From Coriobacteriia bacterium (lineage in GTDB: Bacteria; Actinomycetota; Coriobacteriia; Anaerosomatales; Anaerosomataceae): a stretch of DNA of 53,937 nucleotides. A model generated the notes under the pieces. The model saw nothing but the letters and a program-made list of their open reading frames with translations, was not told the origin of the DNA and ran no database searches. A program made the position numbers and the translations under genes. Shown piece after piece: positions 8,493 to 48,613 of this stretch (its first letter is position 1; each line of letters begins with the position of its first letter). Location of the stretch: contig JAOAFY010000003.1 in NCBI GenBank assembly GCA_026416035.1, forward strand, positions 1 through 53,937. Reading direction: 5' to 3'.

Positions 8493-9998
8493 CTACGCCT
8501 CCGGGCGCATGTGGGGGAACAGGATCACGTCGCGGATCGACGGGCTGTCCGTGAGCAGCATGGCGAGCCTGTCGATGCCCACACCGAGACCTCCAGCAGG
8601 CGGCATGCCATACTCCAGCGCCCGCAGGTAGTCTTCGTCGTATCCCATGGCCTCCTCGTCGCCGCCCGCTTTCGCACGGGCCTGCGCCTCGAACCGCTCG
8701 CGCTGGTCGATCGGGTCGATCAGCTCCGAGAAGGCGTTCGCAATCTCGCGGCCCACCACGATGACCTCGAACCGCTCGGTGAGTTCGGGCGCTCCTGGCT
8801 TCTTCCGAGCGAGAGGCGAGGTCTCCAGCGGGTAGTCTGTCACGAACATCGGGCCGATGATGGCGTGCTCCGCCAGCTTCTCGAACAGCTCCGTGATGAG
8901 CTTGCCCTTGCCCCATGAAGGCTCGAACGGCACGCCGTGCCGGTCGCACAGGCGCCGGAGGTCTTCGACGGAGCGCGCGAAGGAGACCTCCTCACCGGCC
9001 GCCTCGCTTGCCAGTTCGACGAGGGTCCTGCGAGGCCACGGGGGCGTGAGGTCGAGCTGCACGCCCTGGTACTCGATCTGGAGCGTGCCGCACGCCGCTT
9101 CCGCAGCCGCGACGACGATGCCTTCTGCGAGGCGCATCATGCCCTGGAGGTCCGTGAACGCCTCATACGCCTCGAGCATGGTGAACTCCGGGTTGTGACG
9201 CACCGAGATGCCCTCGTTGCGGAACGACCGGTTGATCTCGAAGACCCGTTCAAACCCGCCGACGAGAAGCCGCTTGAGGTACAGCTCGGGTGCGATCCGC
9301 AGATACAGGTCCATGTCGAGCGCATTGTGATGCGTCACGAACGGGCGCGCCGCTGCACCGCCCGGGATGGGATGCAGCATCGGCGTTTCGACCTCGAGGA
9401 AGCCCTGCGATTCCATGAACCGCCTGATCGCCGAGATGATTGCGAACCGCTTCTCGAACGTCTGCCGCACCTCAGGATTCGCGATCAGGTCCACGTACCG
9501 CTGACGGTAGCGCGTCTCGACGTCGGTCAGCCCGTGGAACTTCTCGGGAAGCGGCCTGAGCGACTTCGACAGAAGCACCACGTCGGCGGGGACCACCGAA
9601 AGCTCGCCTCGCCGGGTCCGGACGACCTCGCCCTCGGCGCCCACCCAGTCGCCGACGTCGATGCGGTCGACTGTCTCGCGGAAGCGCGCCTCGCCGAGCG
9701 CATCGGACCTCAAGAAGAGCTGGATCTCACCGCTGCCGTCCCGCAGCACGAGGAACGCGATCTTGCCCTGGTCACGCTTCGCCATGATCCGTCCGGCGAC
9801 AGACGCCGATACGCCTGAGCCCTCGCCGGCAGGCAGGTCTTTGTGCTCAGCGTGCAAGCCGGCTGCGAGGTGGGTGCGATCGTACCGGGCCTTGTACGGT
9901 TCGTCGCCAGAAGCACGCATCGCCGCGACCTTGACCAGGCGCGCCGCGAACGGGTCGTCTGGCTGCTCCTGGCCGAGGATGTCGCTCTCGTCCGGCAT
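8493..9998 (-). CDS. lysS: Lysine--tRNA ligase (class II)
   Basis: [60 protein letters not shown]. Confidence 0.98.
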
Positions 9999-10937: not shown

Positions 10938-11588
10938 CTAGACGCGCTCAGACCCGTCGGCCCGCGACAGGTAGTACAGCGTGTGGAGCAGCTCGAGCAC
11001 CGGGTCCGTGTTGTGGAGCGTGACCCCCTCGGGCACGTGGACGAGCGCCGGGGTGTAGTTCAAGATGATGCGCACCCCGGCGCTGCACACCAGGTCCGCC
11101 GCCGCCTGTGCCGCCTCCGGAGGAACTGCGAGCACCGCAATCCGGATGTTTTGGTCCGCCACTACCTGGGGCAGCTCGTCGACGTGCCGCACGATCACGT
11201 CGCCGATCCGCTTGCCGACTTTCTGCGGGTCGTTGTCGAAGACCGCCGTGACGTAGAACCCGTGCTGCCTCAGCCCGTCGTACCCCGCGATGGCCGATCC
11301 GAGATTCCCGGCGCCGACCAGAGCGAGGCGATGCACATGATCGGCTCCCAGGATTCGCTGGATGCTGTCGACGAGCAGTGCGATGTCGTATCCGACGCCG
11401 CGCTTCCCGAACGAGCCGAAGTGCGTCAGGTCGCGGCGGATCTGGGCCGGGTTGACACCGGTGAGCTCCCCGAGACGCGCAGACGACACAGTCGTCCGAC
11501 CCTCGTGACGGAGCTGGATCAGTGCACCGAGGTAGACGGGCAAGCGTTCGACGACGCCAGCCGGGATGTCGTGCTGCGTACCGGTCAT
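10938..11588 (-). CDS. rex: Redox-sensing transcriptional repressor Rex
   Basis: ERLPVYL, SSARLGE..G..PAQIRRDL, FGKRGVGY, VGAGNLG Rossmann, LNYTP. Confidence 0.96.
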   Translation of the reverse strand: MTGTQHDIPAGVVERLPVYLGALIQLRHEGRTTVSSARLGELTGVNPAQIRRDLTHFGSFGKRGVGYDIALLVDSIQRILGADHVHRLALVGAGNLGSAIAGYDGLRQHGFYVTAVFDNDPQKVGKRIGDVIVRHVDELPQVVADQNIRIAVLAVPPEAAQAAADLVCSAGVRIILNYTPALVHVPEGVTLHNTDPVLELLHTLYYLSRADGSERV

Positions 11589-14676: not shown

Positions 14677-15477
14677 CTACTCGAAGCGCACCCTGAATGC
14701 GGCTCCCGGCTCGATGCCGTACCGATCGGCCGCGCTCCCCTTGAACACGGCGAGCGTGAGCCACCCGGACGAGTCGACCAGCGCGACCGGCTCGCCTTCG
14801 CCGACCTCCGAGAACGTCCTCCTGAACGGCACCGCCATCACGGTGTGGCCGAACGACATCTCCACGCGCTGTGGCGGTTCGCGGAACTGCAGGTCTTGCG
14901 ACGAGACCGAGATCCGCACCGAACCGAAGCGATCGATGTCCACCGCCTCTGCCACGTATACCTCCCCCTCGCGCCGAGCTGGCAGGAACGGCGGAGGCGC
15001 GAGCGCATCAGGATCGACGCGTTCTCCAAGCGCCGACGGCTCGATGCCGCACGCCAGAGCGGCCGCGGCTGGCGCGAGCACATCTCGCGCATGGAACGTG
15101 GCCAGCGGGCCTTCGAACTTCAGGACTTCTGGCTGTATGGCGTACGCTTCAGCGACTCCCCCGGCACGCCACGAGGCAGGAAGAAGGACGCCGTTATCGG
15201 GACCGACGAGCAAAGCGCCCGTCGTCGTCACGAGGCAGAGGTCTTTGCGCGGCCCGCCGACTCCCGGATCGACGACGACGAGGTGGATCGCGTCTGGAAG
15301 CTGCCAGACCCCAGCGGCAGCGACTGCTGCGGCCTTCCGGATGTCATAGGGCGGCACGTCGTGAGCGAGGTCCACGACGCGGGCCTGAGGGCAGGCCTTG
15401 TAGATCACCGCGTGGCAGATGCCGACCCAGGTGTCTCCGGTCCCGAAATCAGAGGTGAAGCAGATGATCGCCTGCAT
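14677..15477 (-). CDS. SAM hydrolase (SAM-dependent chlorinase/fluorinase superfamily, DUF62 type)
   Basis: FTSDFG, VDLAHDVPP, VVVDPGVGGPR, GPDNGVL, TFHARD, IDRFG, DSSGWL; Asp-Arg-His triad of the hydrolases present. Confidence 0.9.
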   Translation of the reverse strand: MQAIICFTSDFGTGDTWVGICHAVIYKACPQARVVDLAHDVPPYDIRKAAAVAAAGVWQLPDAIHLVVVDPGVGGPRKDLCLVTTTGALLVGPDNGVLLPASWRAGGVAEAYAIQPEVLKFEGPLATFHARDVLAPAAAALACGIEPSALGERVDPDALAPPPFLPARREGEVYVAEAVDIDRFGSVRISVSSQDLQFREPPQRVEMSFGHTVMAVPFRRTFSEVGEGEPVALVDSSGWLTLAVFKGSAADRYGIEPGAAFRVRFE

Positions 15478-15550
15478 ATGCTCTCCTCGACCGCGGTCGC
15501 GCCGCACCGCTCCTTGTCGTACGATGGCAGCACCAGGGAGGAGGTGCTCC

Positions 15551-16009
15551 ATGAAGCCTCGCATCGTCCACATGATACCCGTCGCCGTCGCGTGGGCGCT
15601 GCTCGCCGTGATCGCAACGGGCTGCGCATCGACCACGCTCAGATACCGCGACGGCAACCGAGCACTCACCCGCGAGAACGTCGTAGAGATCGCGCGCGAG
15701 ACTGACCTGGGCGAAGTCGGGAAGGCGTCAGCGAGCGAGGCACAAGATCTGCGGACACAGGCCCTGACTGAGCTGCGTTCCCATGGCCAGGACGCACAGA
15801 GGCTGGCAGACGCCCTTACTGCGCAACTCCCATCGGACTACGCCGGTGTCCCGGTGTATGTGGAAGCTGCGAACGTCGAGGGCCGCGCGTGTTGGATCGT
15901 CGTCGAGGCGCGTCCGGCCTCTGATTCCGAGAGCCGGCTCTCGTCCCGCAGATACTGGGTCTTCGACCGCGACGACTTCGCCGTCGTCGAGTCCGGAACG
16001 CTGCCGTAG
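15551..16009 (+). CDS. Predicted lipoprotein, unknown function
   Basis: Basic N-terminus, hydrophobic stretch, lipobox IATG-C; GAGG RBS before the ATG at 15551. Confidence 0.75.
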   Translation: MKPRIVHMIPVAVAWALLAVIATGCASTTLRYRDGNRALTRENVVEIARETDLGEVGKASASEAQDLRTQALTELRSHGQDAQRLADALTAQLPSDYAGVPVYVEAANVEGRACWIVVEARPASDSESRLSSRRYWVFDRDDFAVVESGTLP

Positions 16010-16018
16010 CGAGGCCCC

Positions 16019-16276
16019 TCAGCCCTGGGACTGCGTGTCGACGGGGAATATCGCCGTGATGGCGTCCCTGGCCACTGCGATGAACTCAGGCGCCGCGATC
16101 AGCGCGCCGTCGCAGACGTTGTAGATGCGCGCGCTCGTCAGTGCGTAGAAGTCCTTGCCCTTCGCATTCAGAGAATCAGTGAGCCGGCTGCCCTCGAGGA
16201 CGTACATGTCGCCCTCGATGCGATGGTCCTTGGTGATGATCATGACCCGAAGGGTGTCCTTCTTCGTGTACACCAT
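16019..16276 (-). CDS. Small conserved hypothetical protein (DUF6812-like)
   Basis: RVMIITKDHRIEGDMYV..GSRLTDSLN...FYALTSARIY pattern recalled for this family; GGGGAG RBS. Family name from memory. Confidence 0.65.
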   Translation of the reverse strand: MVYTKKDTLRVMIITKDHRIEGDMYVLEGSRLTDSLNAKGKDFYALTSARIYNVCDGALIAAPEFIAVARDAITAIFPVDTQSQG

Positions 16277-16342
16277 GGCATCTCCCCTGTCCGCCGCCCA
16301 CGCCATCATACGCCCCAGGTTGGGACGCAACAAGCAACGACA

Positions 16343-17201: not shown

Positions 17202-17230
17202 GGCGCCCCCGGCGTCAAGCCGAGGGCGCC
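17202..17230 (-). terminator. Terminator-like hairpin after the multiheme cytochrome gene
   Basis: 12-bp stem, fully paired on the minus strand with one G-U, 5-nt loop, followed by TCACTTT. Confidence 0.6.
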
Positions 17231-17250: not shown

Positions 17251-19326
17251 CTAGTGAATCAGCCGCACGTGGCAGTACGAGCACTCGGTCGGCTTGTGGC
17301 AGTCGAAGCAGGGCTCTGCGCCGGTCTTCTTGACGATGTTCGGGTGATACGTCCGCCACGCCTGGTTGGCCACCGCACCCTTGTGATGGCAGTTGTCGCA
17401 GAAGTACTGGCTGTGGCAGTTGACGCACACTGGCTTCGTCAGCTTCTTGGCCTGGAAGTCGGCCTTGTGGGTGTCCTTGAAGTCGGCCGGATGCGGCATC
17501 GGCAGCTTGTGGCAGTTCTTGCAGAACTTGGCCTCCACACCGCCCACCCCGTGGCAGTAGTCGCAGCTGTCGGTCTGCGCCTTGTAGGCAGCCGAGTGCT
17601 TCGCTGCCTTGCCGAGCGCAAGGTTGCGCGTCCAGTCAGCAGCCTTGTGCGAAGCTGGCAGCGCCTTGAGCTTCGTGTGGCAGTCCACGCAGAACTGCTT
17701 GTTCTCGTGGCACTTCTCGAAGCACGGTCCAGTGCCCTTGGCGGCCACAGCCTTCGGGTGCTGCTGCTGCCATGGCACGCCGTTGATGGCGCCAGCGTGA
17801 TGGCAGTCGGAGCAGACCTCCTTGAAAGTGTGGCAGTTGGCGCACAGCTGCGGAGTCTTGCGGCCGGACACGTGGTTCTTCTTGAAGGTGTCAGGGTGCG
17901 GCATCTCCATGCCGTGGCAGCCCTTGCAGAACTTGGCGTTCGTACCGCCTGGGCCGTGGCACACGTCGCAGCTGTCGATCGCCTTCATCGCAGACAGCGC
18001 GTGCTTGCCGGACGGCTCAGCCGCCTTCTCGCCGTACTTGGTCACGGTCAGCCTGTCGCGCAGCCACTTCGCATCCTTGTGCGAGCTCGGCAGGGGCTTG
18101 AGCCTGGTGTGGCACTCCACGCAGAACTTCTGATCGTGGCACGCGCCGAGGCACGGGCTCACGCCGTTCGTCGTGACCGCCTTGGCATGCTGCGTCCTCC
18201 AGGCCACCTTCGGATCGAACTTCCAGTTGACCTTCGTGCCGTGATGGCACTCGTTGCAGAACTGGTAGTTCGTCTTCTTGACCTGGTGGCACAGGTCGCA
18301 CTTGTCCATCTTCGTCTTAGCGACCTGCGGGTGCGTCTTCTCTTTGAATTCGGCCGGGTGCGGCATCTCCATGCCGTGGCAGCCCATGCAGAAGGTCGCC
18401 TTCACGTGGCAGGTGGCGCAGTAGTCGACCTTGTCGACTGCGACCAGGTGCAGCCCCTCGCCTTCGGCGCCCTCTTCAGCCTTCTCGCCCTCCGCGGCCT
18501 TCTCGCCCTCCGCGGCCTCTCCGCCTTCAGACGCTTCGGCTTCTCCCTCGACAGGCTTGCCGGTCGAGCGATCCACCTTGGCCATGGCAAGCTTCGCGTG
18601 GCCCTTCGGGTAGAAGTCCTTGGCCTTGTGCGACGGCGGCTTCAGATCGAAGTCGGCAGGATGGCATGCCGAGCACTTGCCCGGCGCCTTGATGCCGCCC
18701 GCGGGCGGCTCCGCCGTGAGCGTGTGGCACCGGAAGCACGCGGTCATCGACATGAAGTTCTGGTGCTTGACGCTCTTCTTCTTGGTCTTCGGGTCGGTCA
18801 GGACCGGTTCCCAGTCGCCGCTCTCGTTGTGAGCGACACGGTTGTGGCACGCGGTGCAGTGGATCTCCTTCTTCTCGTGCGCCTCGTGGTCGATCTTGAT
18901 CCCGGGGCTCGGGGTCACCTTGCGCGTGGCGAGGTTGTGGCACTGCGTGCACTGCCGCGAACCCATCTCCTCGGTGTTCATCGCGAGGTGGCTGTCGGGG
19001 TTCAGCGGAAGCTCGAAGTTGTTCGTCACGGTCAGCACGAGCTCGCCGAGCGCCTTGGCCTTCTTCAGGGTGAACGTGATGGGATCGGAGTTGACCGGCT
19101 CGTGGCACGACATGCACGAGACCATGTTGTGGGACGAACGGTCGTACGCGGCGATGGAGTCATCCTGGACCTTGTGGCACACGCTGGCGCAGAACCAGTA
19201 GGTCGACGTCGCGCCAAACGCGATCACGATGAACGCTGCAAGCGCCAGGACGACGACGCCGGTCCAGATGACGTACCGTGGTCGCCGCACCGGATCTTTG
19301 AACCCGGCCAGTGAGATCTTCGCCAT
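17251..19326 (-). CDS. Membrane-anchored 24-heme cytochrome c (NapC/NirT-like head + three hexaheme modules)
   Basis: Counted 21 CxxCH + 3 CX3CH (CASVCH, CLGACH, CFEKCH); one N-terminal TM helix followed by TYWFC..CH..Y..S.H...C.SCH as in NapC/NirT; RBS GAGGAG spacing favours ATG 19326 over 19332. Confidence 0.93.
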   Translation of the reverse strand: MAKISLAGFKDPVRRPRYVIWTGVVVLALAAFIVIAFGATSTYWFCASVCHKVQDDSIAAYDRSSHNMVSCMSCHEPVNSDPITFTLKKAKALGELVLTVTNNFELPLNPDSHLAMNTEEMGSRQCTQCHNLATRKVTPSPGIKIDHEAHEKKEIHCTACHNRVAHNESGDWEPVLTDPKTKKKSVKHQNFMSMTACFRCHTLTAEPPAGGIKAPGKCSACHPADFDLKPPSHKAKDFYPKGHAKLAMAKVDRSTGKPVEGEAEASEGGEAAEGEKAAEGEKAEEGAEGEGLHLVAVDKVDYCATCHVKATFCMGCHGMEMPHPAEFKEKTHPQVAKTKMDKCDLCHQVKKTNYQFCNECHHGTKVNWKFDPKVAWRTQHAKAVTTNGVSPCLGACHDQKFCVECHTRLKPLPSSHKDAKWLRDRLTVTKYGEKAAEPSGKHALSAMKAIDSCDVCHGPGGTNAKFCKGCHGMEMPHPDTFKKNHVSGRKTPQLCANCHTFKEVCSDCHHAGAINGVPWQQQHPKAVAAKGTGPCFEKCHENKQFCVDCHTKLKALPASHKAADWTRNLALGKAAKHSAAYKAQTDSCDYCHGVGGVEAKFCKNCHKLPMPHPADFKDTHKADFQAKKLTKPVCVNCHSQYFCDNCHHKGAVANQAWRTYHPNIVKKTGAEPCFDCHKPTECSYCHVRLIH
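17894..18385. repeat. 30-bp exact direct repeat inside the cytochrome gene (17894-17923 and 18356-18385)
   Basis: gggtgcggcatctccatgccgtggcagccc occurs twice, 462 bp apart, in the GCHGMEMPHP segment of modules 1 and 2. Confidence 0.9.
18479..18518. repeat. 18-bp tandem repeat encoding AEGEKA in the acidic linker
   Basis: gccttctcgccctccgcg twice plus a partial copy. Confidence 0.85.
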
Positions 19327-19404
19327 ACGCATCTCTCCTCGCTCGTCCCGGATCTCAGCGTCGCACGCGACAGAAGCGGCCCCTCGGCCCGCTGCATGCG
19401 CCTA

Positions 19405-19438
19405 ACTGTATCCGAACCCTTGTGACGCGACAATACAA
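19405..19438 (-). promoter_or_regulatory. Promoter of the cytochrome gene with overlapping TTGT-N11-ACAA site
   Basis: TTGTCG(19433-19428)-N17-TACAGT(19410-19405); TTGTGACGCGACAATACAA at 19420-19438 covers the -35. Confidence 0.55.
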
Positions 19439-19502
19439 GCCACGGACGCATTTCGCTCCAGTGCCTGAGATTCCTGCCTGGCGCCGGAGCACGCTGTCCG
19501 AA

Positions 19503-20648
19503 TCACTTCACGGCCATGGAATCGACGAGGCGGTTCAGCTCCGTGATCGCAGCCGCGACCTGGCGAGCCGCCTCGGCGGCCTGCTGCGAGACCGATGCGA
19601 TCTCCTTCATGGAGAGCACGACCTGGTCAGACGCGCTTCGCTGCTGCTGGGTCGCGATGGATATCTGCTTGGCTGCGTCGGTCGTCTCCTCGACTTGCGC
19701 CACGATGCGCTCGAGCGCGTCTTGCGTGCTTTCTGCCAGCCGCTTGCCCTCGTTCACCTTGTTCGCTGCCTTCTCCGTCTGCATGATGAGCGCCGAGGTC
19801 GATGCCTGGATCTCTCGCACGACCCTGCCAATCTCCTGGGTGGACTCGGTCACCGACTCGGCAAGCTTGCGAATCTCCTCGGCCACGACGGAGAATCCTT
19901 TCCCTGCTTCGCCCGCACGAGCGGCCTCGATGGCAGCGTTGAGCGCGAGGATCTTCGTCTGCTCGGCGATCTCGTCGATGATGGTGAGCACTCTGCCGAT
20001 CTCTTGGCTGCGCTCCCCCAGGGCGAGGATGCGGTCCGAGGACTGCTGGGTCGTCAGGCGGATCTCCTCGATGCCCTCAGCCGTATCGTGGACCGCCTGC
20101 AACCCTTCTTCGGCGCTCGCGAGCGTCCGCTCTGCGATGCGCACGACGGCGGACGAGTTTTCGGCTATCTGGCTGGAGGTCTGGGCAAGTTCCTCGACCG
20201 TCGCCGATGTCTCGGTCACCGCAGCAGCCTGCTCGGCAGCTCCGCTCGCCTGCTCCTCGGTCGCCGCCAGGACTTGCGCCGTGAGTGCCCGGATGTTCGT
20301 CGTCATCGCACGGATCTGATCCAGCAGCGTCGAGATGTTCGAGAACACCCGGTCTGCCTCGGAGGCCAGACCCTCAAGCCCCTTCGCATCGTGCACAGAG
20401 ATACCAAGCGTGCGTCCGGCTTTAGCCAACACCTCCCTGAACGGACGCTCGGAGATACGCTGCGCCAGGAAGTGGCACCCGATGCCCAGACCTACCCCCG
20501 CCCCAACACAGGCCAGCACGAAGAGAGCCAGCGCTATGCTGCTCTTCGGAGTGACGAAGAGCAGTGCGAAAGGCGGGAACAGAAGACCGACGACCATTCC
20601 CGCCACGACGAACGCGTACAGCTCCCGCTTCTTCACGCCGTTGCTCAT
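19503..20648 (-). CDS. Methyl-accepting chemotaxis protein, two TM helices, no extracellular sensor domain
   Basis: [38 protein letters not shown] signalling hairpin; start set at MSNGVKKR. Confidence 0.93.
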
Positions 20649-20756
20649 GTGCAACCCCGTTCCGCTGCGACTCCTCCGAACCGTGGCCGCCCCTCGCCCC
20701 GTTCGGACACATACTAGCAATTAGGGCGCTGCACCGCACTGGCAGCCTCAACACGC

Positions 20757-30627: not shown

Positions 30628-30698
30628 GGCTCCTCACCAGATGAACGCGACCTCGTGCAGTACGAGGATACCGCGTTTCGACGCCGCTGGCACGCAGC

Positions 30699-31907
30699 CT
30701 AGGCGTGACGAAGCGGTTCCTGCGTCCAACCCGCGATGGACACGCACACCATCGAGGTGCCGATCACGGCAAGGGACGCAGGGACCCCGATCCGCTGCAC
30801 GAGGATGCCTGCCAGCACGTAGCCAGTCGCAAGCGCTGCCCCAGCGAGCATCCTCTGGACGGCGTAGATCCTGCCCAGGTGGCGTGCGGAAGCGTGCGCC
30901 TGCACCATGGCGCGCGCCGGCACGTAGAACCACATGTTCGCGAAGCCCACGAGAAAGACGAACGGCAGCGCCATGACCAGGCTCCTGGAGGTCGCCGTCG
31001 CAGCGATGAACACGCCAGCAGCAGCCAGGCCGATGATGTACTTGATGCCGGAACGCTCTGATCCGCTCTGACCTACAGCGACGCTTCCGACGAGCAAGCC
31101 GACCGTGATCGCAGCGTCGAGCGCCGCCAGCCCGACGGCTCGACCATCCACCGGTCCTGAGCCGAAGTGCTTGAGCGCAAGACCATGCATGGCCGTGTTC
31201 GCCGCAGCGATGGGCACTGCAGCGAGGGCATACGTCGCGGTAAGCGGTCGGATCAGCGCGTTGTCACGAATGCCCCGGAGGCCATCGGCGATCTGTGCGA
31301 GCATCGGCCCGGCCGCCGATGCCTCACCAGCCGCCCGTCGAGGTACCCGCATGCTGGCGATGACCAGCGCCGAGACCGCGAAGGTGGAGGCGTCGATGAA
31401 GAAGGCGTTCGACGCACCGAGCCTCGCGACCAGGCCCGCGCCAATGGCCAGACCAGCAATCTCCGACACGGACATCGTGGCTTGGTCCAGCGAGTTCGCT
31501 GCCACTAGGTCGTCTTCCGCGACGATCTCTGGGACGAGCGAGAATCGCGCCGGCTCGAAGAACAGCGAGGCAGTCGAAACGACGAAAGCAGCGGCGTAGA
31601 AGAACGCGATGTTGCGCTGCGCCAGGAAGGGGATCGCGCACACGAGCACAGCTCGGATGACGTCCGCTCCCACCATGACCCGCTTGCGGTCCGACCTGTC
31701 TACCGCAGCACCGATGGGAAGAGCGAACAGCACCGCCGGGAGGGTAGTGACCGCCAGCATCGCGCCGACGTGGACCACCGAACCTGTGAGCTTGTAGACG
31801 AGGATGCTTGCGCCGATCTGATGGATCTTGTCTCCGAGCACCGAGACAAGCTGAGCGATCCACAACGCTCGATACTGCCGGCTCCTGAGCGGCTGGATGA
31901 TGCGCAC
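30699..31907 (-). CDS. MFS transporter (DHA3/macrolide-efflux-like)
   Basis: About 12 TM helices, GAAVDRSDRKRVMV motif A, LVAANSL. Confidence 0.9.
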   Translation of the reverse strand: MRIIQPLRSRQYRALWIAQLVSVLGDKIHQIGASILVYKLTGSVVHVGAMLAVTTLPAVLFALPIGAAVDRSDRKRVMVGADVIRAVLVCAIPFLAQRNIAFFYAAAFVVSTASLFFEPARFSLVPEIVAEDDLVAANSLDQATMSVSEIAGLAIGAGLVARLGASNAFFIDASTFAVSALVIASMRVPRRAAGEASAAGPMLAQIADGLRGIRDNALIRPLTATYALAAVPIAAANTAMHGLALKHFGSGPVDGRAVGLAALDAAITVGLLVGSVAVGQSGSERSGIKYIIGLAAAGVFIAATATSRSLVMALPFVFLVGFANMWFYVPARAMVQAHASARHLGRIYAVQRMLAGAALATGYVLAGILVQRIGVPASLAVIGTSMVCVSIAGWTQEPLRHA

Positions 31908-36995: not shown

Positions 36996-38933
36996 TTAGC
37001 CGAAAAGCGTCCGCGGATCGAGGATCAGCGCCACGCTTCCGTCGCCGAGCACGGTCGCTCCGCCGAGCCCCTTGATACCCCTGAACAGCGGCGAGAGCGG
37101 CTTGATGACGACCTCCTGCCGCGACACCAACCGCTGCACCGCTAAAGCGTTCCTCGTGCCAGCCACGTCGACCAGCACGACGTGGTCTTTCTTCCGCGGC
37201 CGACCGCGGCGCCCGTCAGACTCGCCCACCAGCTGGTCAAGCCGCCACGCGGGGACGACCGAGCCATCGCGCAGAACGACGCACGGGCTCCTGTCGACCG
37301 TAGTGACTCGAACCTCATCGGTGGGCAGCACCTCTGCGACCGCCGAGAGAGGGAGTGCGAACGTCTGGTTGGCGGTGCCGACGAGCAGCGCAGGCACGAT
37401 GGCGAGCGTGAGCGGCAGGCTGAGCGTGACTTCGAGCCCGGCTCCGACCTCCGTCTTGAGCGAGACCGTGCCACCGAGGTACTCGATCTTGCCCTTCACG
37501 ACGTCCATCCCGACACCGCGGCCGGAGACTTTGGTGGCGCGCTCCGCCGTGGAGAAGCCCGGGGTACAGGTGAGCATGAGGACGTCTTCGTCGGTGTATG
37601 CTTCGCGGTCGGACGCCGAGACCAGGCCTCGAGCGCACGCCTTCTCCCAGATCCGTTCCACGTCGATGCCGCGTCCATCGTCGGCGACCGTGACGCGCAC
37701 CTGATCGCGTTCTCGCTCAGCGCTCAGGCGTATCCACCCCCTCGGTGGCTTGCCCGCAGCCACCCGCTCCTCGACGCTCTCGATGCCGGGGTCTCCCGCG
37801 TTGCGCCGCAGGGGGACGATGGGGGGGCCGAGCTCGGCGAGCGCGGTCCGATCGAGCTCGATGTCCAAACCGGCCATCTCGAAGTCGACCTGCTTGCCGA
37901 GATCCCGTGCGAGGTCTCTGACCATGCGCGGGAACCGGTTGAAGATGTTGCCGACCGGCACCATCCTCGTCTGCATGACTTCGTGCTGAAGCTCAGAGGT
38001 CACCTGCTGCAACCCGGAGACCGCCTCGACGAGCTCGTGGTCGTCCCTGTCCCGGGCGATGCGTTCCAGCCGCGCACGCAGGATGACGAGCTCCCCGACC
38101 AGGTTGACCATCGCGTCGAGGTGACCGATGGACACTCGAACCGTCTGGGTCTCGGCGAGCTTCGGAACGATGCGCCTGCTGCGAGATTCGCGGCCCTCCT
38201 CGTCACGCGCCACCGTCGGCCGTGCAACATCGGATTCCACGTTGACTGATGCGATCTCACTGATGCCGAGGAGCGCCCGCTCGATAGCGTCGGGAGGCTC
38301 TGCCGTCTGCACCACCACGACGAAGCTGCGGTCGAACCGCTCGTCCTCGATGTCCCTCGCGCTCGGCTCTGTGTCGAGCACCGACCCCATGTGCCCGAGC
38401 CGCTTGATGGCCATGTAGGCCCGGACCGCCTTCAAGACGCTCGTCTCGTCGATCGTCACCGTGACCCGGTAGACCGCTCCCTCCGGCTCCGGTCCGCGCT
38501 CCGGCTCAGACGAGAGCGCGCCCTCATCCGCCGGAGCCGCCTGGCGAGCACCCGGCTCGGCACTCGCGACGAGATCGGCCACGATGGCGCTCGCATCGTA
38601 TCGGCTTCCGCCCTCGCTTTCGTCGCTGATCAGCTCCCGGACGGCGTCGACGGCGCGAAGCATGAGGTCGATCAGCCCGGCGTCCACGGCCCTCTCGCGT
38701 TTCCGCACCGTGTCCATGAGGCTTTCCATCTTGTGGGTGAGGTCGGCGGTGCGCTCGTATCCCATCGCCGCCGCCATGCCTTTCAAGCTGTGCGCGCCGC
38801 GGAAGATCGTCTCGACGGGCTCGAGGTCGTGCGGGTCGGCTTCCAGCGAGAGCAGCCCGTCGGTGATGGCTTGGAGGTACTCCGCGCTCTCAGACAGGAA
38901 GACCTCCCGGTAGGCGGACATGTCGTCGCTCAC
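36996..38933 (-). CDS. cheA: Chemotaxis histidine kinase CheA
   Basis: P1 IFRGAHSLKG, P2, dimerisation VRV..LDAMVNLVGEL, DDGRGID, GFST, GRGVGMDVV, C-terminal CheW-like domain; N-box region anomalous (see findings). Confidence 0.95.
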   Translation of the reverse strand: MSDDMSAYREVFLSESAEYLQAITDGLLSLEADPHDLEPVETIFRGAHSLKGMAAAMGYERTADLTHKMESLMDTVRKRERAVDAGLIDLMLRAVDAVRELISDESEGGSRYDASAIVADLVASAEPGARQAAPADEGALSSEPERGPEPEGAVYRVTVTIDETSVLKAVRAYMAIKRLGHMGSVLDTEPSARDIEDERFDRSFVVVVQTAEPPDAIERALLGISEIASVNVESDVARPTVARDEEGRESRSRRIVPKLAETQTVRVSIGHLDAMVNLVGELVILRARLERIARDRDDHELVEAVSGLQQVTSELQHEVMQTRMVPVGNIFNRFPRMVRDLARDLGKQVDFEMAGLDIELDRTALAELGPPIVPLRRNAGDPGIESVEERVAAGKPPRGWIRLSAERERDQVRVTVADDGRGIDVERIWEKACARGLVSASDREAYTDEDVLMLTCTPGFSTAERATKVSGRGVGMDVVKGKIEYLGGTVSLKTEVGAGLEVTLSLPLTLAIVPALLVGTANQTFALPLSAVAEVLPTDEVRVTTVDRSPCVVLRDGSVVPAWRLDQLVGESDGRRGRPRKKDHVVLVDVAGTRNALAVQRLVSRQEVVIKPLSPLFRGIKGLGGATVLGDGSVALILDPRTLFG

Positions 38934-39991
38934 GCGCCCACCCCCTCACGGACCGACCGCCGTATCTCTGCCGGGATCTTGTCCAGCGGGACGACCCTGT
39001 CGACCGCCCCGGCTTTCAGGGCCGCCTTCGGCATCCCCCACACGACGCTCGTGGCCTCATCCTGGGCGATCGTGGTACCTCCGCAGTTCTTGATCGCCTT
39101 GAGCCCGGCAGCCCCGTCGGAGCCCATGCCGGTAAGCACGACGCCTACTGCATGCTCTCCGTACGCGTGCGCAACGCTCTCGAACAACGGGTCGGCTGCC
39201 GGCCGCACGCCGTGCAGCGGCGAGCCCGACTCCAGGCGCACGCGATGCGTCGCACCACGCTCGACCACCATGTGCGTTCCGTGCGGCGCAACGTACCCCT
39301 TGCCAGGAACCAGACGCGCCCCGTCAGAGGCCTCAGCGAAGTCGATCCTCGACGCCTTCGTCAGGCGTTTCGCGAGAGAAGCGGAGAAGCCGGACGGGAG
39401 GTGCTGCACCACCAGGTACGAGCACGGCAGACCAGGCCCGATCGCTGCAAACAGCCGCTCGAGAGCTGGAGGGCCCCCTGTCGAGGCAGCCACGGCTACG
39501 ACGCTGCGCAGAATCGTCGATCCGGAACCCCCCGCAGAGCCAGCGGCGGGCCCGCCAGGCTCGGCCGGACCTAGAGGCACTCGCTTCGCAGGATCCACGC
39601 GATACGCAGTCTTGATCTTCTTGAGCATGACTTCAGAGAGCTCGGTAAGCGAGGTGGCCACTCCGCTCCTCGGCTTCACGACGAAGTCAGAGGCCCCTGC
39701 CGAGAGAGCCTGGTACGTCGTGTCTGGATCGTCCAGGCTCGACAGCATCACCACGCGAGACTTGGTCGACTTCATCAGCACCGGCAGCGCCTCAAGGCCG
39801 GTGAGATCCGGCATCTCGATGTCGAGCGTGATGACGTCCGGCTCGAGCTCGATTGCTCGCTCGATCGCCTCGACCCCAGTCTTCGCCGTTCCGACGACCT
39901 CGATCCGCGGATCGACTGACAGCGCCCGCGACAGCATCTGCCGGATGAGCGCTGAGTCGTCGACGATGAGGACCTTGATCGTCGGCAGCAT
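38930..39991 (-). CDS. cheB: Chemotaxis response regulator methylesterase CheB
   Basis: REC (IVDDS, TLDIEMP), catalytic ASTGG, QHLP, RPAAD, LTGMGSDG, QDEATSVVWGMP. Confidence 0.96.
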   Translation of the reverse strand: MLPTIKVLIVDDSALIRQMLSRALSVDPRIEVVGTAKTGVEAIERAIELEPDVITLDIEMPDLTGLEALPVLMKSTKSRVVMLSSLDDPDTTYQALSAGASDFVVKPRSGVATSLTELSEVMLKKIKTAYRVDPAKRVPLGPAEPGGPAAGSAGGSGSTILRSVVAVAASTGGPPALERLFAAIGPGLPCSYLVVQHLPSGFSASLAKRLTKASRIDFAEASDGARLVPGKGYVAPHGTHMVVERGATHRVRLESGSPLHGVRPAADPLFESVAHAYGEHAVGVVLTGMGSDGAAGLKAIKNCGGTTIAQDEATSVVWGMPKAALKAGAVDRVVPLDKIPAEIRRSVREGVGA

Positions 39992-40000
39992 CGGCGCTCA

Positions 40001-40372
40001 TCACCGTGGGGAGGACTGAAGGCACTTCTTGACCGTCTCGAGCACCTTGGTCGGCTGGAAGGGCTTCACCAGGAAATCCATCGCACCGGCCTCCAGCGCC
40101 TCCACGATGAGCTTCTGCTGACCCATCGCGCTGACCATGAGCACCCGTGCGTGAGGGTCGTGCTCCCGGATCTTCCTCAGGGCCTCGATGCCATCCATCT
40201 CCGGCATCGTGATATCCATGGTGGTGAGGTCTGGCCGCACCTCCAAGTACTTCTCCACGGCGTCCCTGCCGTTCACGGCCTCGTGGATGACGTAGCCCTC
40301 CTTGGACAGGATGTCGCGGATCATCATCCGCATGAATGCTGCGTCGTCGACGACGAGCACCGACCTAGACAT
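40001..40372 (-). CDS. cheY: Chemotaxis response regulator CheY
   Basis: LVVDDAAFMR, TMDITMPEMDG, VSAMGQQ, KPF. Confidence 0.95.
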   Translation of the reverse strand: MSRSVLVVDDAAFMRMMIRDILSKEGYVIHEAVNGRDAVEKYLEVRPDLTTMDITMPEMDGIEALRKIREHDPHARVLMVSAMGQQKLIVEALEAGAMDFLVKPFQPTKVLETVKKCLQSSPR

Positions 40373-40856
40373 CTGCGCTCGCCTCCTCTGCATCCGTCAC
40401 GGAGACGAATACCGCAGGTGGAACCAGTTTGTCGGGCACGAGCAGCATCACTAGCCGCCCTTCATGGTCCGCAACTCCCTCAAAAGCGTCGGCAAGCTCG
40501 CTGGACGCAAGCGACTCGGGAGTCTGCATAACCGCAGCAGCCGACATGCGGGCGACCTCGTGCGCTGAGTCGACGGCGAACCCCACGAGCCCGGCAGTGG
40601 TCTCCGTCACGATCACGCGAGAGCTTCCTGAGCGCGAGGAGCCTTCGCCGAACAGCCGACGGCCAAGATCCACAACGGGCACGATCTGCCCGCGCAGGTT
40701 TATGACGCCTTCCACGAAGTCGGGAGCGTGCGGCACGGGAGTCGGCTTCTCATACCTGATGATGCTCGTGACGCGCTCGACCGGCAGCCCGAACTCCTCT
40801 TCACCGAGCGTGAAGAGCACCACCTGACGGACGGCGTCGCTCGAGGTGCCTTCCAT
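40365..40856 (-). CDS. cheW: Chemotaxis coupling protein CheW
   Basis: VLFTLGEEEFG, PHAPDFVEGVINLRGQIVPVVDL, GFAVDS. Confidence 0.95.
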   Translation of the reverse strand: MEGTSSDAVRQVVLFTLGEEEFGLPVERVTSIIRYEKPTPVPHAPDFVEGVINLRGQIVPVVDLGRRLFGEGSSRSGSSRVIVTETTAGLVGFAVDSAHEVARMSAAAVMQTPESLASSELADAFEGVADHEGRLVMLLVPDKLVPPAVFVSVTDAEEASADV

Positions 40857-40865
40857 GACGAGCTC

Positions 40866-42194
40866 CTACTCCACCTTGAAGCGGCGGACGGACTCTTCGA
40901 GCCGCCTGGCCATCTCGGCGAGCTCCTGCGCGGACGACGAGATCTCCTGCATGCAGGCCGTTTGCTGCTGGGCCGCAGCAGCGGTCTCCTCGGCGGACGC
41001 CGCGTTCTCCTCGACGACCGCCGCGATGTCGTGCATCGCCTTGTCCACTTCCATGGTGCGCTGCGCCTGCTCAGCCATCGCGGCAGCGATCTCCTCTGCA
41101 AGCGTCGCGGTCTTCGTGACCGCCTCCGTGATGCTGCGCAGCGCCTCGCCCGTCCGGCCGACGACCTCGCTGCCGATGACGACCTCGTTCGCGCCGCGCT
41201 CCATGTACTTGAGCGCCTTGGCCGTCTCGGCCTGCACGTCTTTGATCAGCTCCCCGATCTGCTGGGCCGCCTTGCCAGAACCTTCTGCGAGCTTGCGGAC
41301 TTCCTCGGCCACGACCGAGAAGCCACGGCCTGACTCTCCGGCACGCGCTGCCTCGATCGCCGCGTTCAGAGACAGCAGGTTCGTCTGGTCGGCGATCGAC
41401 GTGATGACATCGACGATGTGGCCGATCTCCTCTGAACGCTTGCCGAGCATCTCGACCGACTCGGCGAGCGTCTCGATGGCGTTGCGAACATCGGCGATCT
41501 TCTCGATGGCCTCGGCGGTCGCCTGCTCGCCTTGCAACGCAGCCTTGGCCGCTTCTTCGCTGGTCTTGCTCGCCTCCTCGGCGCGCCGCGCCACGGCATT
41601 CACCGTTCCGGTGATCGACTCCATGGCCGAGGTCGTCTCCTCGACCTTGCGAGACTGGAGCTCCGCGCCATGCGCGATCTGCTGCACCGAGGAGGAGATC
41701 TCCATCGAAGACGAGTTGATTTCCTCAGATGACGCCGAAAGCTGGGTCGCCGCGTTCGTGACCTGCTCGGAGGAGCGGCGCACACCGGCTGCGATCTCGC
41801 CGAGCGATGCGATGAGGTGGTTGCAGTCCTCCGTCAGCCTGCCGATCTCGTCATCGTGCAGCTTCTCGGCCCGCACCGTGAGATCGCCGTCTGCGGCCCT
41901 CGCCATGACTGCACCGAGGTCTTGCAGCGGCTGGAGGACGCGTCGCCGGAAGGCGCGCCACCAGGCGAGCTGGCCCGGAACGGCGCAGATCAGCATGGCG
42001 ATGGCGCCGAACAGGGCCGTGTACAGGAGCTTGTCGCCATGGATGCCGAGCACGGCCACCGCGAACACCCCGGTGAGCGTCAACCCGATCGCTACCGCCG
42101 GACCGATCGTGGCCCAGGTCCAGAGCGTGAACGTGAGCAGCAGCCCCTTGCGAGCGTCCGAACCCGGCTGGAACATGCTGTCTCGCGCCATCAA
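40866..42194 (-). CDS. Methyl-accepting chemotaxis protein (2 TM, minimal loop, HAMP)
   Basis: Two TMs, HAMP (QPLQDL..GDLTVR..DEIGRL), [38 protein letters not shown]. Confidence 0.95.
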
Positions 42195-42276
42195 CGACCC
42201 CTCCTCGGAACGGTCTTCCGCCTCGCACCCGCCTAAGGATACTACACGCCCTCGGACGCGACTCCTCAGACCCGCC

Positions 42277-43119
42277 CTAACGCTCGTACGGCTTCCTGTA
42301 CACCCGCTCCCGGCCGTTCACCAGTTCGAAGCTCGGCTTGGTCCCGGGCGGTATACGCTCGCTCCTTCCCAACACCAGGTAGCCCCCGCGCGCGAGGGCG
42401 GACCAGAACACCCCAAGAAGCCGGTCCTGCTCCTGCCGGTTGAAGTAGATGAACACGTTCCGGCAGAACACCACGTCCACGACGTGTATCGGCGAATCGG
42501 TGAGCAAGTTGAGCTGCTGGAACTTGCATAGACGCGCAACCTCGGGCTTGATGACGAAGGTGTCCTCGCGCTCCTCGATGAAGCGACGCCTGTCTGCGGC
42601 AGGGATGTGGGCCAGCTGTTGCAGAGGGTATTCGGCTCGGCGCGCGATCTCGAGCGCCTTCGGATCGATGTCGGTCCCGAGGACAGACAGCAGGAATCCG
42701 CCGTGGTCGGGTCCCATGCCCGCGAGGAACGACATGGCGATCGAGTACGCCTCCTGACCGGTCGAACAGCCGGCTGACCAGACACGGATCATCCGCTGGT
42801 GGCGCCGCCGCTTCTCTTCGAGGAGCTGCGGCACGATCTGAGAGCGGAAGACATCGAACACCGTCGGGTCGCGGAAGAACTGCGTCACGTTAATCGTCAG
42901 CGTGTCGATGAGCTTCGAGTACTCTTCCGGATGCTCATCGAGGTACGCAGCGTACTGACGGTAGCTGTGGAGGCCGAGCGCGTTGAGCCGCGTGGCCAGC
43001 CGACGCTCGACGTAGCGCGTCCGGTATTGCGCCAGGTCCAAGCCCCGTTCATCGCGGATCTTCGCGATGATGCGATCGAGGTTGCCCCGGTAGACCGTCT
43101 CCGCCGCGTGGGGATCCAT
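42277..43119 (-). CDS. cheR: Chemotaxis methyltransferase CheR
   Basis: [51 protein letters not shown]; start MDPH after GGGAGG. Confidence 0.95.
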
Positions 43120-43150
43120 TCGCCTCCCGACTGCCGAGCTGCCACCCTCC

Positions 43151-43160
43151 ATTGTAGAAT
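43151..43160. promoter_or_regulatory. Overlapping divergent -10 hexamers (TACAAT minus, TAGAAT plus)
   Basis: attgtagaat in the 74-nt gap between divergent cheR and L,D-transpeptidase genes. Confidence 0.5.
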
Positions 43161-43193
43161 ACGCGTACCACTCCTCCGTGCGACAGGAGCCGC

Positions 43194-44231
43194 ATGCACC
43201 GAGCACCGACGCACCTGCGCATCCTCGCGTGCATCGCCGCCTGCGCCTGCTTCGTGCTGAGTGCGGGTGCGGCAGCGGCGATCGCTCAGGACTACGTCTC
43301 CCGCGACGTCCTCGCGCCCGGGTCGGCGGTAGCGACCACCTCGGTGGGCGGCATGAGGCTCAGCGAGGCCAAGCAGGCGATCGAACGAGATCTCGCTGCC
43401 TCGTTCGGGCAGACCATGACCGTGATGGCCGGACAGCGCACCGTGCAGGTGCAGCCGTCACAGTTCCTGCGCGTAGACCTCGCCCGGACGTTGGGAAGCC
43501 TCGCGCAAGCCAAGGGCCGGACGCCTACGGCGCGCAGGCTGCTGGCTCAGGCCACCGGCGCACCGTACGGTACCAAGGTCCCTCCGCAGATCGCCGTCGA
43601 CCGCGCCGCACTCGATGCGTGGGTGGCTACCCTCGCGGCGTCGGTGGGGACCCCGGCTTCCGATGCCACACTCACGGTACAGGACCGTCAGCTCGTGGCG
43701 ATCCCTGAACGGGTAGGCTTCTCCATCGACCCTCGCAAGGCCGCAGACGCAGTGGCTGTGGCACTGGCACGCGGAGACGACAGCGTCCGTCTCCCCGTCA
43801 CCCGGATCGAGCCGAAGGTCACGCGCGAGGACCTCGGCATGGCGATCCTCGTCAGACGGGCCGACCGTCGGCTCTTCCTCTACGAAGACGGCAGGCTCGT
43901 GAAGGTCTATCGCGTTGCGGTCGGCGCGCCTGGCTTCCCGACGCCTCGAGGTCGCTGGACGATCGTCCGAAAACGCTACATGCCGACGTGGGGAAACCCG
44001 GGGTCGGACTGGGCGAAGGACATGCCTCGGTTCATCCCGCCCGGACCGAACAACCCCCTCGGCACGCGCGCTTTGGACCTGAGCGCGCCGGGAATCCGCA
44101 TCCACGGCACGAACAAGGACTACTCGATCGGTCAAGCGGCCTCGCACGGTTGCATGCGGATGCACCGCTGGGACATCGAAGACCTCTACGACCGAGTGCC
44201 GGTCGGCACACCCGTGTTCATCATCGACTGA
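43194..44231 (+). CDS. L,D-transpeptidase family protein with N-terminal PG-binding region
   Basis: Signal peptide; RRLFLYE..YRVAVG..TPRG, NPLGTRAL, IRIHGT, SHGCMRM. Confidence 0.93.
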   Translation: MHRAPTHLRILACIAACACFVLSAGAAAAIAQDYVSRDVLAPGSAVATTSVGGMRLSEAKQAIERDLAASFGQTMTVMAGQRTVQVQPSQFLRVDLARTLGSLAQAKGRTPTARRLLAQATGAPYGTKVPPQIAVDRAALDAWVATLAASVGTPASDATLTVQDRQLVAIPERVGFSIDPRKAADAVAVALARGDDSVRLPVTRIEPKVTREDLGMAILVRRADRRLFLYEDGRLVKVYRVAVGAPGFPTPRGRWTIVRKRYMPTWGNPGSDWAKDMPRFIPPGPNNPLGTRALDLSAPGIRIHGTNKDYSIGQAASHGCMRMHRWDIEDLYDRVPVGTPVFIID

Positions 44232-47066: not shown

Positions 47067-48092
47067 TCACCCTCCGATCTGCGACATGCGCCGGATGGTG
47101 CCGACGCGCATGTTGTGGTGCTCTGGCTTCGCAGCCAGCGCACGCTCGATCAGCGCCCGCACTGCGTCGTCGTCGCCGGTACGCAGAACGCTGCGGGCAT
47201 CCAGCTCGTCGTCCGAGAACAGACAGGTGCGAAGCCGGCCGTCCGCCGTCAGACGCAGACGGTTGCACTCACCGCAGAAGTGGTGCGAGAGCGGCGAGAT
47301 GACGCCGAGCGTGCCCGCCGCGCCGTCGAACCGATAGTACCGCGCAGGCCCCCATCCGCCGGGCGCCTCCTCGCGGGAGACCGCCTTCAGCTCGCCGAAT
47401 CCCGCTGCAGCACCCTCTGCGGCGAGGCGTGCAAGGATCTCGTCCGAGGGAACCTCGTCTTCGATCGTCCAGCCGTCTGCCTCCGCGCCGCCGCACACGG
47501 TCCCATCGTCCGCACCGCCGACGGGCATGTATTCGATGAACCGCACGTGGACGGGCCGCTCGAACGTCATCCGAGCGAAAGCCGCGAGGTCCTGATGCAA
47601 GCGCCGCACGACCACGACGTTGAGCTTCACCGGATCCATGCCGGCATCGAACGCCGCGTCAAGCCCTGCGAGCACCTCCGACAGCCGGCCCCCTCGGGTG
47701 ATGCGGGCGAAGACGTCGGGGTCGAGGGTGTCGAGCGAGACGTTCACCCGTCGGAGCCCCGCAGCGGCGAGTTCGTGCGCGTAGCGCGCAAGGAGCGTGC
47801 CGTTGGTCGTGAGCGCAATCGCCTCGATGCCAGTGACCTCCAGCAGGCGCCGCACGTGGCCGACCAAACCTCGCCTGACGAGCGGCTCGCCCCCCGTCAG
47901 CCTGATCTTCGAGATTCCCTGCCCTGCCGCAACGGCAGCGAACCGCTCGATCTCCTCGTACGTGAGCAGCTCGTCGTGAGGCTTCCAGGCGACGCCGCCT
48001 TCCGGCATGCAGTACACGCACCGCAGGTTGCACCGGTCCGTGACCGAGATGCGCAGGTAGTCGATCCGTCTGCCGAAGGAGTCAGTCGCCAT
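47067..48092 (-). CDS. moaA: GTP 3',8-cyclase MoaA
   Basis: [50 protein letters not shown]-terminal MSQIGG. Confidence 0.97.
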
Positions 48093-48612: not shown

Positions 48613-48613
48613 C

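Follow-up and report, generated by a model that had tools for sequence, protein, structure and literature searches.

A gene for a multiheme c-type cytochrome occupies positions 17251-19326 on the minus strand of a 53,937 nt stretch of DNA from a Coriobacteriia bacterium of the family Anaerosomataceae (assembly GCA_026416035.1, contig JAOAFY010000003.1; the whole stretch is referred to as the window). It is the only multiheme open reading frame (ORF) in this 54 kb window. The longest possible ORF spans 17251-19332 (693 aa), and residues are numbered here from its first ATG at 19332. The second ATG (MAKISL..., 19326) fits the family consensus MAKISLAGF; its methionine, M3, is invariant among 64 full-length homologs, and a Shine-Dalgarno sequence (GGAGAG, 19333-19338, minus strand), kept across orthologs, is found 6 nt upstream of it. 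The second ATG is thus the better start, so that the product has 691 aa and the gene runs from 19326 to the stop codon TAG at 17251-17253, as had been assumed in an earlier annotation made from the letters alone (the sequence-only reading). The mass of the holoprotein is about 91 kDa.

The protein contains 24 heme motifs, 21 of the CXXCH type and three of the CX3CH type (C48, C394, C537), and all 48 cysteines fall inside these motifs. In 2000 shuffled versions of the protein, motifs numbered 0.47 on average and never more than 4. The full set of 24 is present in 62 of the 64 full-length homologs (53-89% identity), the remaining two lacking only the motif at C305, and 47 histidines are conserved in the family together with the 24 motifs. 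Judged by this conservation and by the shuffle control, the count of 24 hemes is real and under selection.

The N-terminus consists of a single transmembrane (TM) anchor (residues 20-42, 19207-19275; this and all further features of the protein are encoded on the minus strand), which follows a conserved basic cytoplasmic segment containing GFKDPVRRPRY. This is the sole hydrophobic segment (Kyte-Doolittle values up to 2.78), with none similar elsewhere in the protein, and AF2 places a helix at residues 17-42. As the highly conserved residues 1-19 are basic with a net charge of +5, the predicted topology is N-in, C-out with the heme domains outside the membrane, which is where the attachment of c-type heme requires them to be.

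The anchor is followed by a six-heme head (residues 43-249, 18586-19206) with motifs spanning residues 48-224. Heme 1 (C48) is found directly after the TM helix; hemes 1-4 resemble those of NapC, NirT and NrfH, and hemes 5-6 those of c7 cytochromes. At its C-terminal end the head carries the LKPPSH235 tail, followed by H245, the histidine of the junction. A scan with hidden Markov models gave 54.6 bits for Pfam family PF03264 (NapC/NirT; cutoff 24.1), with residues 26-169 aligned to positions 17-170 of the 174 in the profile, and most homologs have a precomputed match to the same family. A c7-type match covers residues 147-224. When the family profile was searched against the PDB, the only solved relative was NrfH (2J7A chain C, E = 5e-5), which matched the head, with all four of its heme motifs in register with head motifs; the repeats described below had no match. 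Lys91, in the helix after heme 2, is invariant and would be linked to the quinol site, like K82 of NrfH and K91 of CymA.

The 18 motifs outside the head are arranged in three hexaheme repeats that are homologous to one another, with 38-46% identity and hhalign probabilities of 99.8-100%. Repeat R1 (residues 299-440, 18013-18438) includes the SH418 tail and the start of the R2 junction, while R2 (residues 441-580, 17593-18012) opens with the junction helix H444-x10-C455. The terminal repeat R3 (residues 581-693, 17254-17592) is devoid of a histidine-supplying tail. The repeat region (residues 299-693) is basic, with a net charge of +22 before heme propionates, and has only 21.9 residues per heme. 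A weak hhalign similarity between head and repeats (70-94%) may be driven by CXXCH and was not relied upon. Thus, the single anchor, the six-heme NapC/NirT-like N-terminus, the 18 further motifs and the total of 24 that had been claimed in the sequence-only reading were all recovered, the 18 motifs now being resolved into repeats.

The junctions between the repeats have nearly constant lengths in the 64 homologs (25-37 residues for R1-R2 and 24-28 for R2-R3), and both follow the pattern H-x10-CxxCH (H444...C455 and H579...C590). The junction between head and R1 is different in that its helix is interrupted by an acidic, low-complexity, disordered insertion (residues 250-298, 18439-18585), the sequence being KGH245-AKLAMAKVD...insert...VDKVDY-C305. 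This segment has an isoelectric point of 4.3 and a net charge of -9, and is composed of 28% Asp/Glu, 6% Lys/Arg and 42% Ala/Gly/Ser/Thr/Pro. Disorder is predicted by AF2 for residues 264-291 (pLDDT, the predicted local distance difference test score, below 50), while the residues on either side of the insert are predicted with confidence. Among the 64 homologs the insert is between 5 and 109 residues long (median 61.5), and it shows no sequence conservation. There are also natural relatives that are free of the insert and have an ordinary H-x10-C junction, namely P0081 (24 hemes; KGH-AELKKEEPKY-C) and L038 (12 hemes; NGH-SDLAQEDPEY-C). In the AF2 model of P0081 the junction is helical (pLDDT about 70-76). 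Because of these relatives, the acidic segment is best explained as a variable insertion (0-100 aa) into an otherwise rigid H-x10-C junction. The acidic linker reported earlier is therefore present as a segment, but it is no conserved tether, as it varies in length and is absent from P0081 and L038.

The same head, with a near-identical N-terminus, occurs in proteins with 8 (about 300 aa), 12 (about 385 aa), 18 (about 550 aa) and 24 hemes, and this series provides a clue to heme ligation. The number of conserved histidines outside the motifs is always one less than the number of hemes: 7 in 8-heme, 11 in 12-heme and 23 in 24-heme proteins. Since the 8-heme proteins stop immediately past hemes 7 and 8 and no histidine follows, the equivalents of H235 (in the LKPxPSH tail) and H245 (in the junction helix) are the simplest candidates for the distal ligands of these two hemes. 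By the same rule, each hexaheme module would contain four of its six distal histidines itself and take the other two from the tail of the preceding module, which would explain why the terminal repeat has no such tail. The donated histidines would also clamp head and repeats together in one chain, from which the acidic segment loops out. As the head has six hemes but only five distal histidines, the census suggests that one head heme is not bis-His coordinated, while bis-His coordination would hold for the remaining 23, in a continuous chain. In this the head heme would resemble the quinol-site heme of NrfH and CymA. Met194, Met196 and Lys91 are conserved and could serve as alternative heme ligands.

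The database search returned more than 450 protein matches, the full-length ones being mostly from metagenome-assembled genomes (MAGs) of uncultured Coriobacteriia/Anaerosomatales. Most of these are labelled just as 'NapC/NirT family cytochrome c', and a search for cultured hosts among the cluster members returned only MAG-derived names. Copies with 12 and with 24 hemes coexist in several MAGs. The 12-heme genes are always found directly downstream of a gene for a 15-heme MtrA-like protein with seven Paired_CXXCH units (loci L023, L026, L027, L029-L033, L037 and L039; e.g. L033, 8494-15511). Nearby genes code for giant cytochromes with MtrC/F-type domains (19 hemes in 1081 aa, 38 hemes in 1799 aa and 44 hemes in 1494 aa). 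Such an arrangement resembles an Mtr-like cluster of monoderm Coriobacteriia in which the porin is missing.

A profile of the hexaheme repeat matched 906 cluster representatives at E <= 1e-3 among 1.84 billion. These include single-TM proteins having canonical NrfH-type heads (FCxSCHEM) and 26-32 hemes, while others are fusions to cytochrome b-type membrane domains. As heads of both types are found on the same repeats, the design of a presumably quinone-interacting membrane head followed by poly-heme repeats is widespread, and it is uncharacterised in the literature that we found. The same repeat, of the CxxCH...MPHP type, follows cytochrome b-like polytopic domains in P0172 and P0174, with P0181 also among the representative matches. 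Related repeats build even larger proteins, such as P0142 (49 heme motifs in 1313 aa) and P0169 (68 heme motifs in 1832 aa).

The cytochrome gene has the features of a separate transcription unit. A promoter-like block (19405-19439, minus strand), about 78 nt upstream of the ATG, consists of TTGTCG (19433-19428), a spacer of 17 nt and TACAGT (19410-19405), and is conserved as TTGTCG-17 nt-TA[C/G]AGT in five orthologous loci. It matches the sigma-70 consensus in 8 of 12 positions, which is under the threshold of the generic scan (9 of 12). A predicted terminator hairpin (17202-17230, minus strand) with a 12 bp GC stem and a 5 nt loop starts 20 nt after the stop codon. Hairpins with a GC stem of 10-15 bp are found at the same place in all 13 orthologous loci examined, although their stem sequences are unrelated. 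Both elements had been missed by the consensus scans for sigma-70 promoters and terminators and were found by ortholog comparison.

Metatranscriptomes from a biocathode, which contain the ortholog of Coriobacteriaceae bacterium EMTCatB1, provide RNA evidence for this unit. The EMTCatB1 contigs end inside the 3' arm of the hairpin in three of four metatranscriptomes, while one run reads through; such contig ends mark transcript ends only approximately. In one run, the next contig begins exactly at the 5' end of the downstream tRNA-Pro; in the window this tRNA has a promoter of its own (TTTACC-17 nt-TATGAT). In addition, the published transcript values for EMTCatB1 are 16 times higher for the cytochrome than for the upstream gene of a methyl-accepting chemotaxis protein (MCP) and 25 times higher than for the downstream DUF2085 gene. 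A separate unit is supported by these data. Of the promoter and terminator that had been proposed earlier, the terminator is well supported by hairpins and RNA ends, and the promoter is probable. One RNA contig (L001 12202, run X9) bears a loose end of 26 nt, TTCTCCCTATAGTGAGTCGTATTACC. As this is the reverse complement of the T7 promoter, it is an artefact of library preparation.

The gene resides in a stable housekeeping region with the conserved order PBP1A, DnaJ, MCP, cytochrome, tRNA-Pro, DUF2085, (DUF6812), lipoprotein, S-adenosylmethionine hydroxide adenosyltransferase, HD/OB protein and phosphorylase. This neighbourhood is kept in 14-16 of 16 loci, down to a cytochrome identity of 52%. 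It contains no genes for cytochrome maturation, porins or reductases; nrfA and other cytochrome genes were not found in the window, and nap genes were not found nearby. The earlier statements that the host is a monoderm and that no porin-cytochrome conduit is adjacent agree with the lineage (Gram-positive Coriobacteriia) and with the gene content of the 54 kb window and of 10 kb around the gene in 16 orthologous loci. The DNA of the window was present in a hot-spring metagenome from 2014.

The closest genome is that of EMTCatB1, the dominant bacterium on a thermophilic electromethanogenic biocathode (PMC5347234, PMC7943316). Its cytochrome shows 90% identity and has the same 24 motifs. The genes of this genome (1d0895 mrcB, 1d0896 dnaJ, 1d0897 MCP, 1d0898 multiheme cytochrome, 1d0899 membrane protein) have the same order as in the window, by which 1d0898 is identified as the ortholog. 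Expression of 1d0898 is 2347 transcripts per million (TPM) on average under closed circuit (replicates 1347 and 3348), 137 TPM with the methanogenesis inhibitor BrES (108 and 167) and 130 TPM under open circuit (136 and 123) (PMC7943316). It is thus induced about 17-fold on the current-consuming, methane-producing biocathode, and this strong induction of a 90% identical ortholog on a working electrode, which is a cathode, supports the sequence-only reading in part.

In the same source, 1d0898 is assigned to the differentially expressed cluster B1-II, and its authors propose that 1d0898 and 1c0642 take up cathode electrons directly and hand them to membrane oxidoreductases (PMC7943316). The passages of this source that deal with 1d0898 do not describe its domain architecture, NapC/NirT head, repeats or heme ligation. 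This ortholog is the only member of the family with expression values; it comes from an electrode enrichment, whereas the cytochrome of the window comes from a hot spring.

Our preferred explanation, which we consider somewhat likely (a probability of roughly 55%), is that this Gram-positive (monoderm) Coriobacteriia bacterium uses the protein as a multiheme 'extension cord', entirely of c-type and anchored in the membrane. The protein would be exported by Sec, with heme attached afterwards outside the membrane. In the head, the non-bis-His heme would be the site of electron exchange with the menaquinone pool, like that of NrfH and CymA. The remaining 23 hemes, all bis-His, would form one continuous chain in which tail histidines stitch head and repeats together rigidly, and the acidic segment would loop out at the first junction, leaving the chain unbroken. 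If roughly linear, the chain would extend about 18 nm outward from the membrane, ending inside the cell wall or beyond it; this length follows a rule of thumb by which a packed wire of 18 nm has about 24 hemes and 85-125 kDa (PMC11520253). At its far end, electrons would be traded with electrodes, minerals or further wall and surface cytochromes. The reach would be set by the number of repeats, which gives totals of 8, 12, 18 or 24 hemes with one and the same head.

Transfer along such a chain could occur both ways, and in the sole measured condition it would probably be inward, from the cathode to the cell. The flow need not run from menaquinol to minerals, as suggested earlier: the only expression evidence comes from a cathode, so that the flow may be inward or in both directions. 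That a single polypeptide would cover the whole route, as had been inferred in the sequence-only reading, stays a proposal: EMTCatB1 encodes 18 c-type cytochromes (PMC7943316), and by the rule of thumb 24 packed hemes span only about 18 nm.

Several points weigh against the proposed extension cord. The head scores far below the cutoffs of the NrfH equivalog TIGR03153 (41.1 versus 134.2 bits) and of the NapC subfamily model TIGR02161 (25.8 versus 310.6 bits). Its heme 1 reads CASVCHKV and lacks the methionine of the NrfH motif CXXCHXM; the CX3CH form of this motif is invariant in the clade, while CXXCH is the norm in the family. By these scores and the missing methionine, the head is to be classified as a member of the NapC/NirT superfamily that is neither NrfH nor NapC, and the oxidation of quinol or reduction of quinone by it is deduced from homology. 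Respiratory quinones were not detected in either of the cultured Anaerosomatales, Parvivirga and Anaerosoma. The elongated shape of the protein is an assumption: the AF2 models have modest predicted template modelling scores (0.53, and 0.42 for the insert-free P0081, which thus scores no higher), and Foldseek gave no match for either. A reach of 18 nm may be too short for a thick Gram-positive wall, and the 17 other c-type cytochromes of EMTCatB1 could be obligatory partners. Finally, the available expression data are from one study with two replicates per condition and concern a 90% identical ortholog in another organism, while the window itself was not found in any RNA run.

There are precedents for each part of this arrangement: the NapC/NirT quinol dehydrogenases, a decaheme protein of Geoglobus, the multihemes of Carboxydothermus, the modular cytochromes of Geobacter and the cathode-induced ortholog. 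With NrfH, CymA and NapC the protein shares the TM helix followed by heme 1, the four motifs in register (2J7A) and probably one non-bis-His heme; it differs by having 24 instead of 4 hemes, a CX3CH heme 1 and no adjacent reductase gene. GSU1996 (12 hemes) and GSU0592 (27 hemes) from Geobacter, polymers of c7-type domains called 'nanowire' cytochromes, have in common with it the tandem small multiheme modules with dense hemes; one long, mostly bis-His chain would also be shared. They are soluble and periplasmic, built from triheme units, and devoid of a membrane quinol-dehydrogenase head. The PDB profile search gave no match to GSU1996-type cytochromes, and a PDB sequence search gave none to the polymerising filaments OmcS, OmcE and OmcZ; the protein of the window has a membrane anchor.

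GAH_01256 from Geoglobus ahangari resembles the protein by a heme-extended NapC/NirT head, the lack of an outer membrane and a proposed role in Fe(III) respiration, but it is a putative, uncharacterised archaeal protein with 10 hemes, and the comparison is by description (PMC8280799). Thermincola potens (ImdcA, CwcA, OcwA) and Carboxydothermus ferrireducens (OmhA, SmhA-C) are monoderm thermophiles with multihemes from membrane to surface, and for the latter, anchored multihemes of the NrfH/NapC type have been proposed as the quinol-oxidising step (PMC7829351). These chains are relays of separate proteins with 6-10 hemes, whereas here a head and an 18-heme extension are joined in one protein. 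We found no description in the literature of a six-heme head with three hexaheme modules in a stand-alone gene, and likewise none of the 8/12/18/24-heme series, the junction insert or the histidine-donation rule.

A more far-reaching version of the extension cord would be a self-sufficient monoderm conduit, in which a quinone-pool oxidoreductase is fused to a rigid wire of about 18 nm that is tuned in hexaheme steps to the thickness of the envelope and runs in reverse on cathodes. We regard this version as doubtful. If it were true, reverse running would reduce menaquinone with electrode electrons and so power the formation of H2 or formate for methanogens in electromethanogenesis.

Alternatively, the protein might be compact or folded back near the membrane, storing electrons in the wall space or distributing them like CymA, without being itself the link to the outside. 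Such a hub or capacitor would fit the many other multihemes in the organism, the pairing of the 12-heme version with MtrA-like 15-heme and MtrC-like 19- to 44-heme proteins in related MAGs, and the large charge capacity of 24 low-potential hemes. We nevertheless think it unlikely. The 24-heme gene stands alone: within 10 kb in the 16 orthologous loci no partner multiheme is encoded except for a 6-heme protein in L009. Moreover, an extension by whole hexahemes is explained more easily by reach than by storage, and the dense heme packing together with the fixed junctions favours a chain.

The head might also be a quinone-independent anchor that only tethers the chain, with electrons exchanged by protein-protein contact with membrane-bound hydrogenase, formate dehydrogenase or other cytochromes. 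Parvivirga and Anaerosoma are Gram-positive organisms that use H2 or formate for the respiration of Fe(III) or sulfur compounds, and they carry 17-18 multihemes, some of which have been called putative quinol oxidisers. The failure to detect quinones in them would be accounted for by such an anchor, as would the equivalog scores of the head and the missing methionine. The hydrogenase and formate dehydrogenase genes of EMTCatB1 are highly co-expressed under closed circuit (PMC7943316). On the other hand, the hallmarks of a quinol site are retained, with heme 1 at the membrane face directly after the TM helix and an invariant Lys91 that would function like the lysines of NrfH and CymA, and by the histidine census one heme of the head is probably not bis-His. 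EMTCatB1 encodes ubiA, ubiE and complex I (nuo), and elsewhere the same repeats follow cytochrome b-type quinone-binding domains. We regard a mere anchor as rather improbable.

A tethered-diffusion shuttle, in which the acidic segment is flexible and the 18-heme module swings between the head and distant partners, has a precedent in PgcA from Geobacter, which also has low-complexity flexible segments between heme domains and a similar reach of 18 nm (PMC11520253). The predicted disorder of residues 264-291 and the low-complexity insert of up to 109 aa would be in line with it. However, the 3 hemes of PgcA are carried on (PT)n tethers and its mechanism is diffusive, whereas the repeats in the protein of the window are densely packed, with about 22 residues for each heme, and the insert is optional in the family. 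The insert-free members P0081 and L038 share the H-x10-C junction that is found between repeats, the prediction is confident on both sides of the insert, and the invariant H235 and H245 most simply ligate two hemes past the insert, which would clamp both sides. We consider such a shuttle quite improbable. A catalytic multiheme reductase (e.g. of nitrite, sulfite or hydroxylamine) is very improbable, even though EMTCatB1 encodes homologs for nitrite respiration (PMC7943316) and one heme has no conserved sixth histidine, because there is no CXXCK or other catalytic heme motif, a conserved histidine is available as sixth ligand for 23 of the 24 hemes, no match to the NrfA, HAO or MccA families was obtained in Pfam, curated-model and PDB profile searches, and the head resembles NrfH, which is the non-catalytic partner subunit.

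The extension cord reading is of interest because the passage of respiratory electrons across thick Gram-positive walls without an outer-membrane conduit has so far only been sketched, as has microbial electron uptake from cathodes. The family would offer a simple design, with one gene, one anchor, a probably quinone-interacting head and length steps of six hemes, of which hundreds of natural variants exist and one ortholog is already tied to a working methanogenic biocathode. The protein is suited for structure determination, heterologous expression and the engineering of electrode-coupled Gram-positive hosts. If confirmed, the histidine-donation rule would help to read other poly-heme repeat proteins from their sequence.

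Some further observations concern the genes around the cytochrome. The MCP gene (19503-20720, minus strand), which is directly upstream of it in 14 of the 16 orthologous loci, codes for two TM helices with a loop of only about 5 residues between them and has no Pfam sensor or HAMP domain. Its ortholog 1d0897 is about 3-fold up on the working cathode (143 TPM versus 40 and 51). The MCP could be an energy or redox taxis sensor, or the adjacency could be mere synteny. For the DUF6812 gene (16019-16333, minus strand) the EMTCatB1 ortholog is probably 1d0900, as judged by gene order only. In the same data set, 1d0900 and the next gene, 1d0901, are strongly cathode-induced (1249 and 1127 TPM under closed circuit versus 151-348), while no such induction is seen for the DUF2085 gene that separates them from the cytochrome.

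A divergently encoded ORF close to the cytochrome region (15419-16009, plus strand), which is found in 14 loci, has a lipoprotein signal peptide from its likely start, with the lipobox ...LLAVIATGC, and no Pfam match. A Rex-type repressor (Put_DNA-bind_N and CoA_binding domains; 10938-11588, minus strand) is encoded 5.7 kb away and is conserved in the syntenic block. Control of the cytochrome by Rex was considered because of this repressor and of a TCACAA in the conserved upstream block, but was rejected for now, as the operator TTGTGAAN4TTCACAA does not occur upstream of the gene when up to 3 mismatches are allowed. The only match to a Rex operator in the window (9440-9457) is at chance level.

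At 30643-30737 (minus strand), ARAGORN reports a tRNA-Pro(agg) of 95 nt, which is below the gathering score of the Rfam tRNA model and is likely to be a false positive, or else a tRNA that is atypical or contains an intron. Finally, the regions 36996-43206 and 47067-53293 of the window contain a chemotaxis cluster (CheA, CheB, a HAMP-containing MCP, CheR) and a molybdenum cofactor cluster (MoaA, MoeA, a MobA-FdhD fusion and a ModC-like ABC ATPase). These two clusters suggest that the organism is motile and relies on molybdoenzymes such as formate dehydrogenase.

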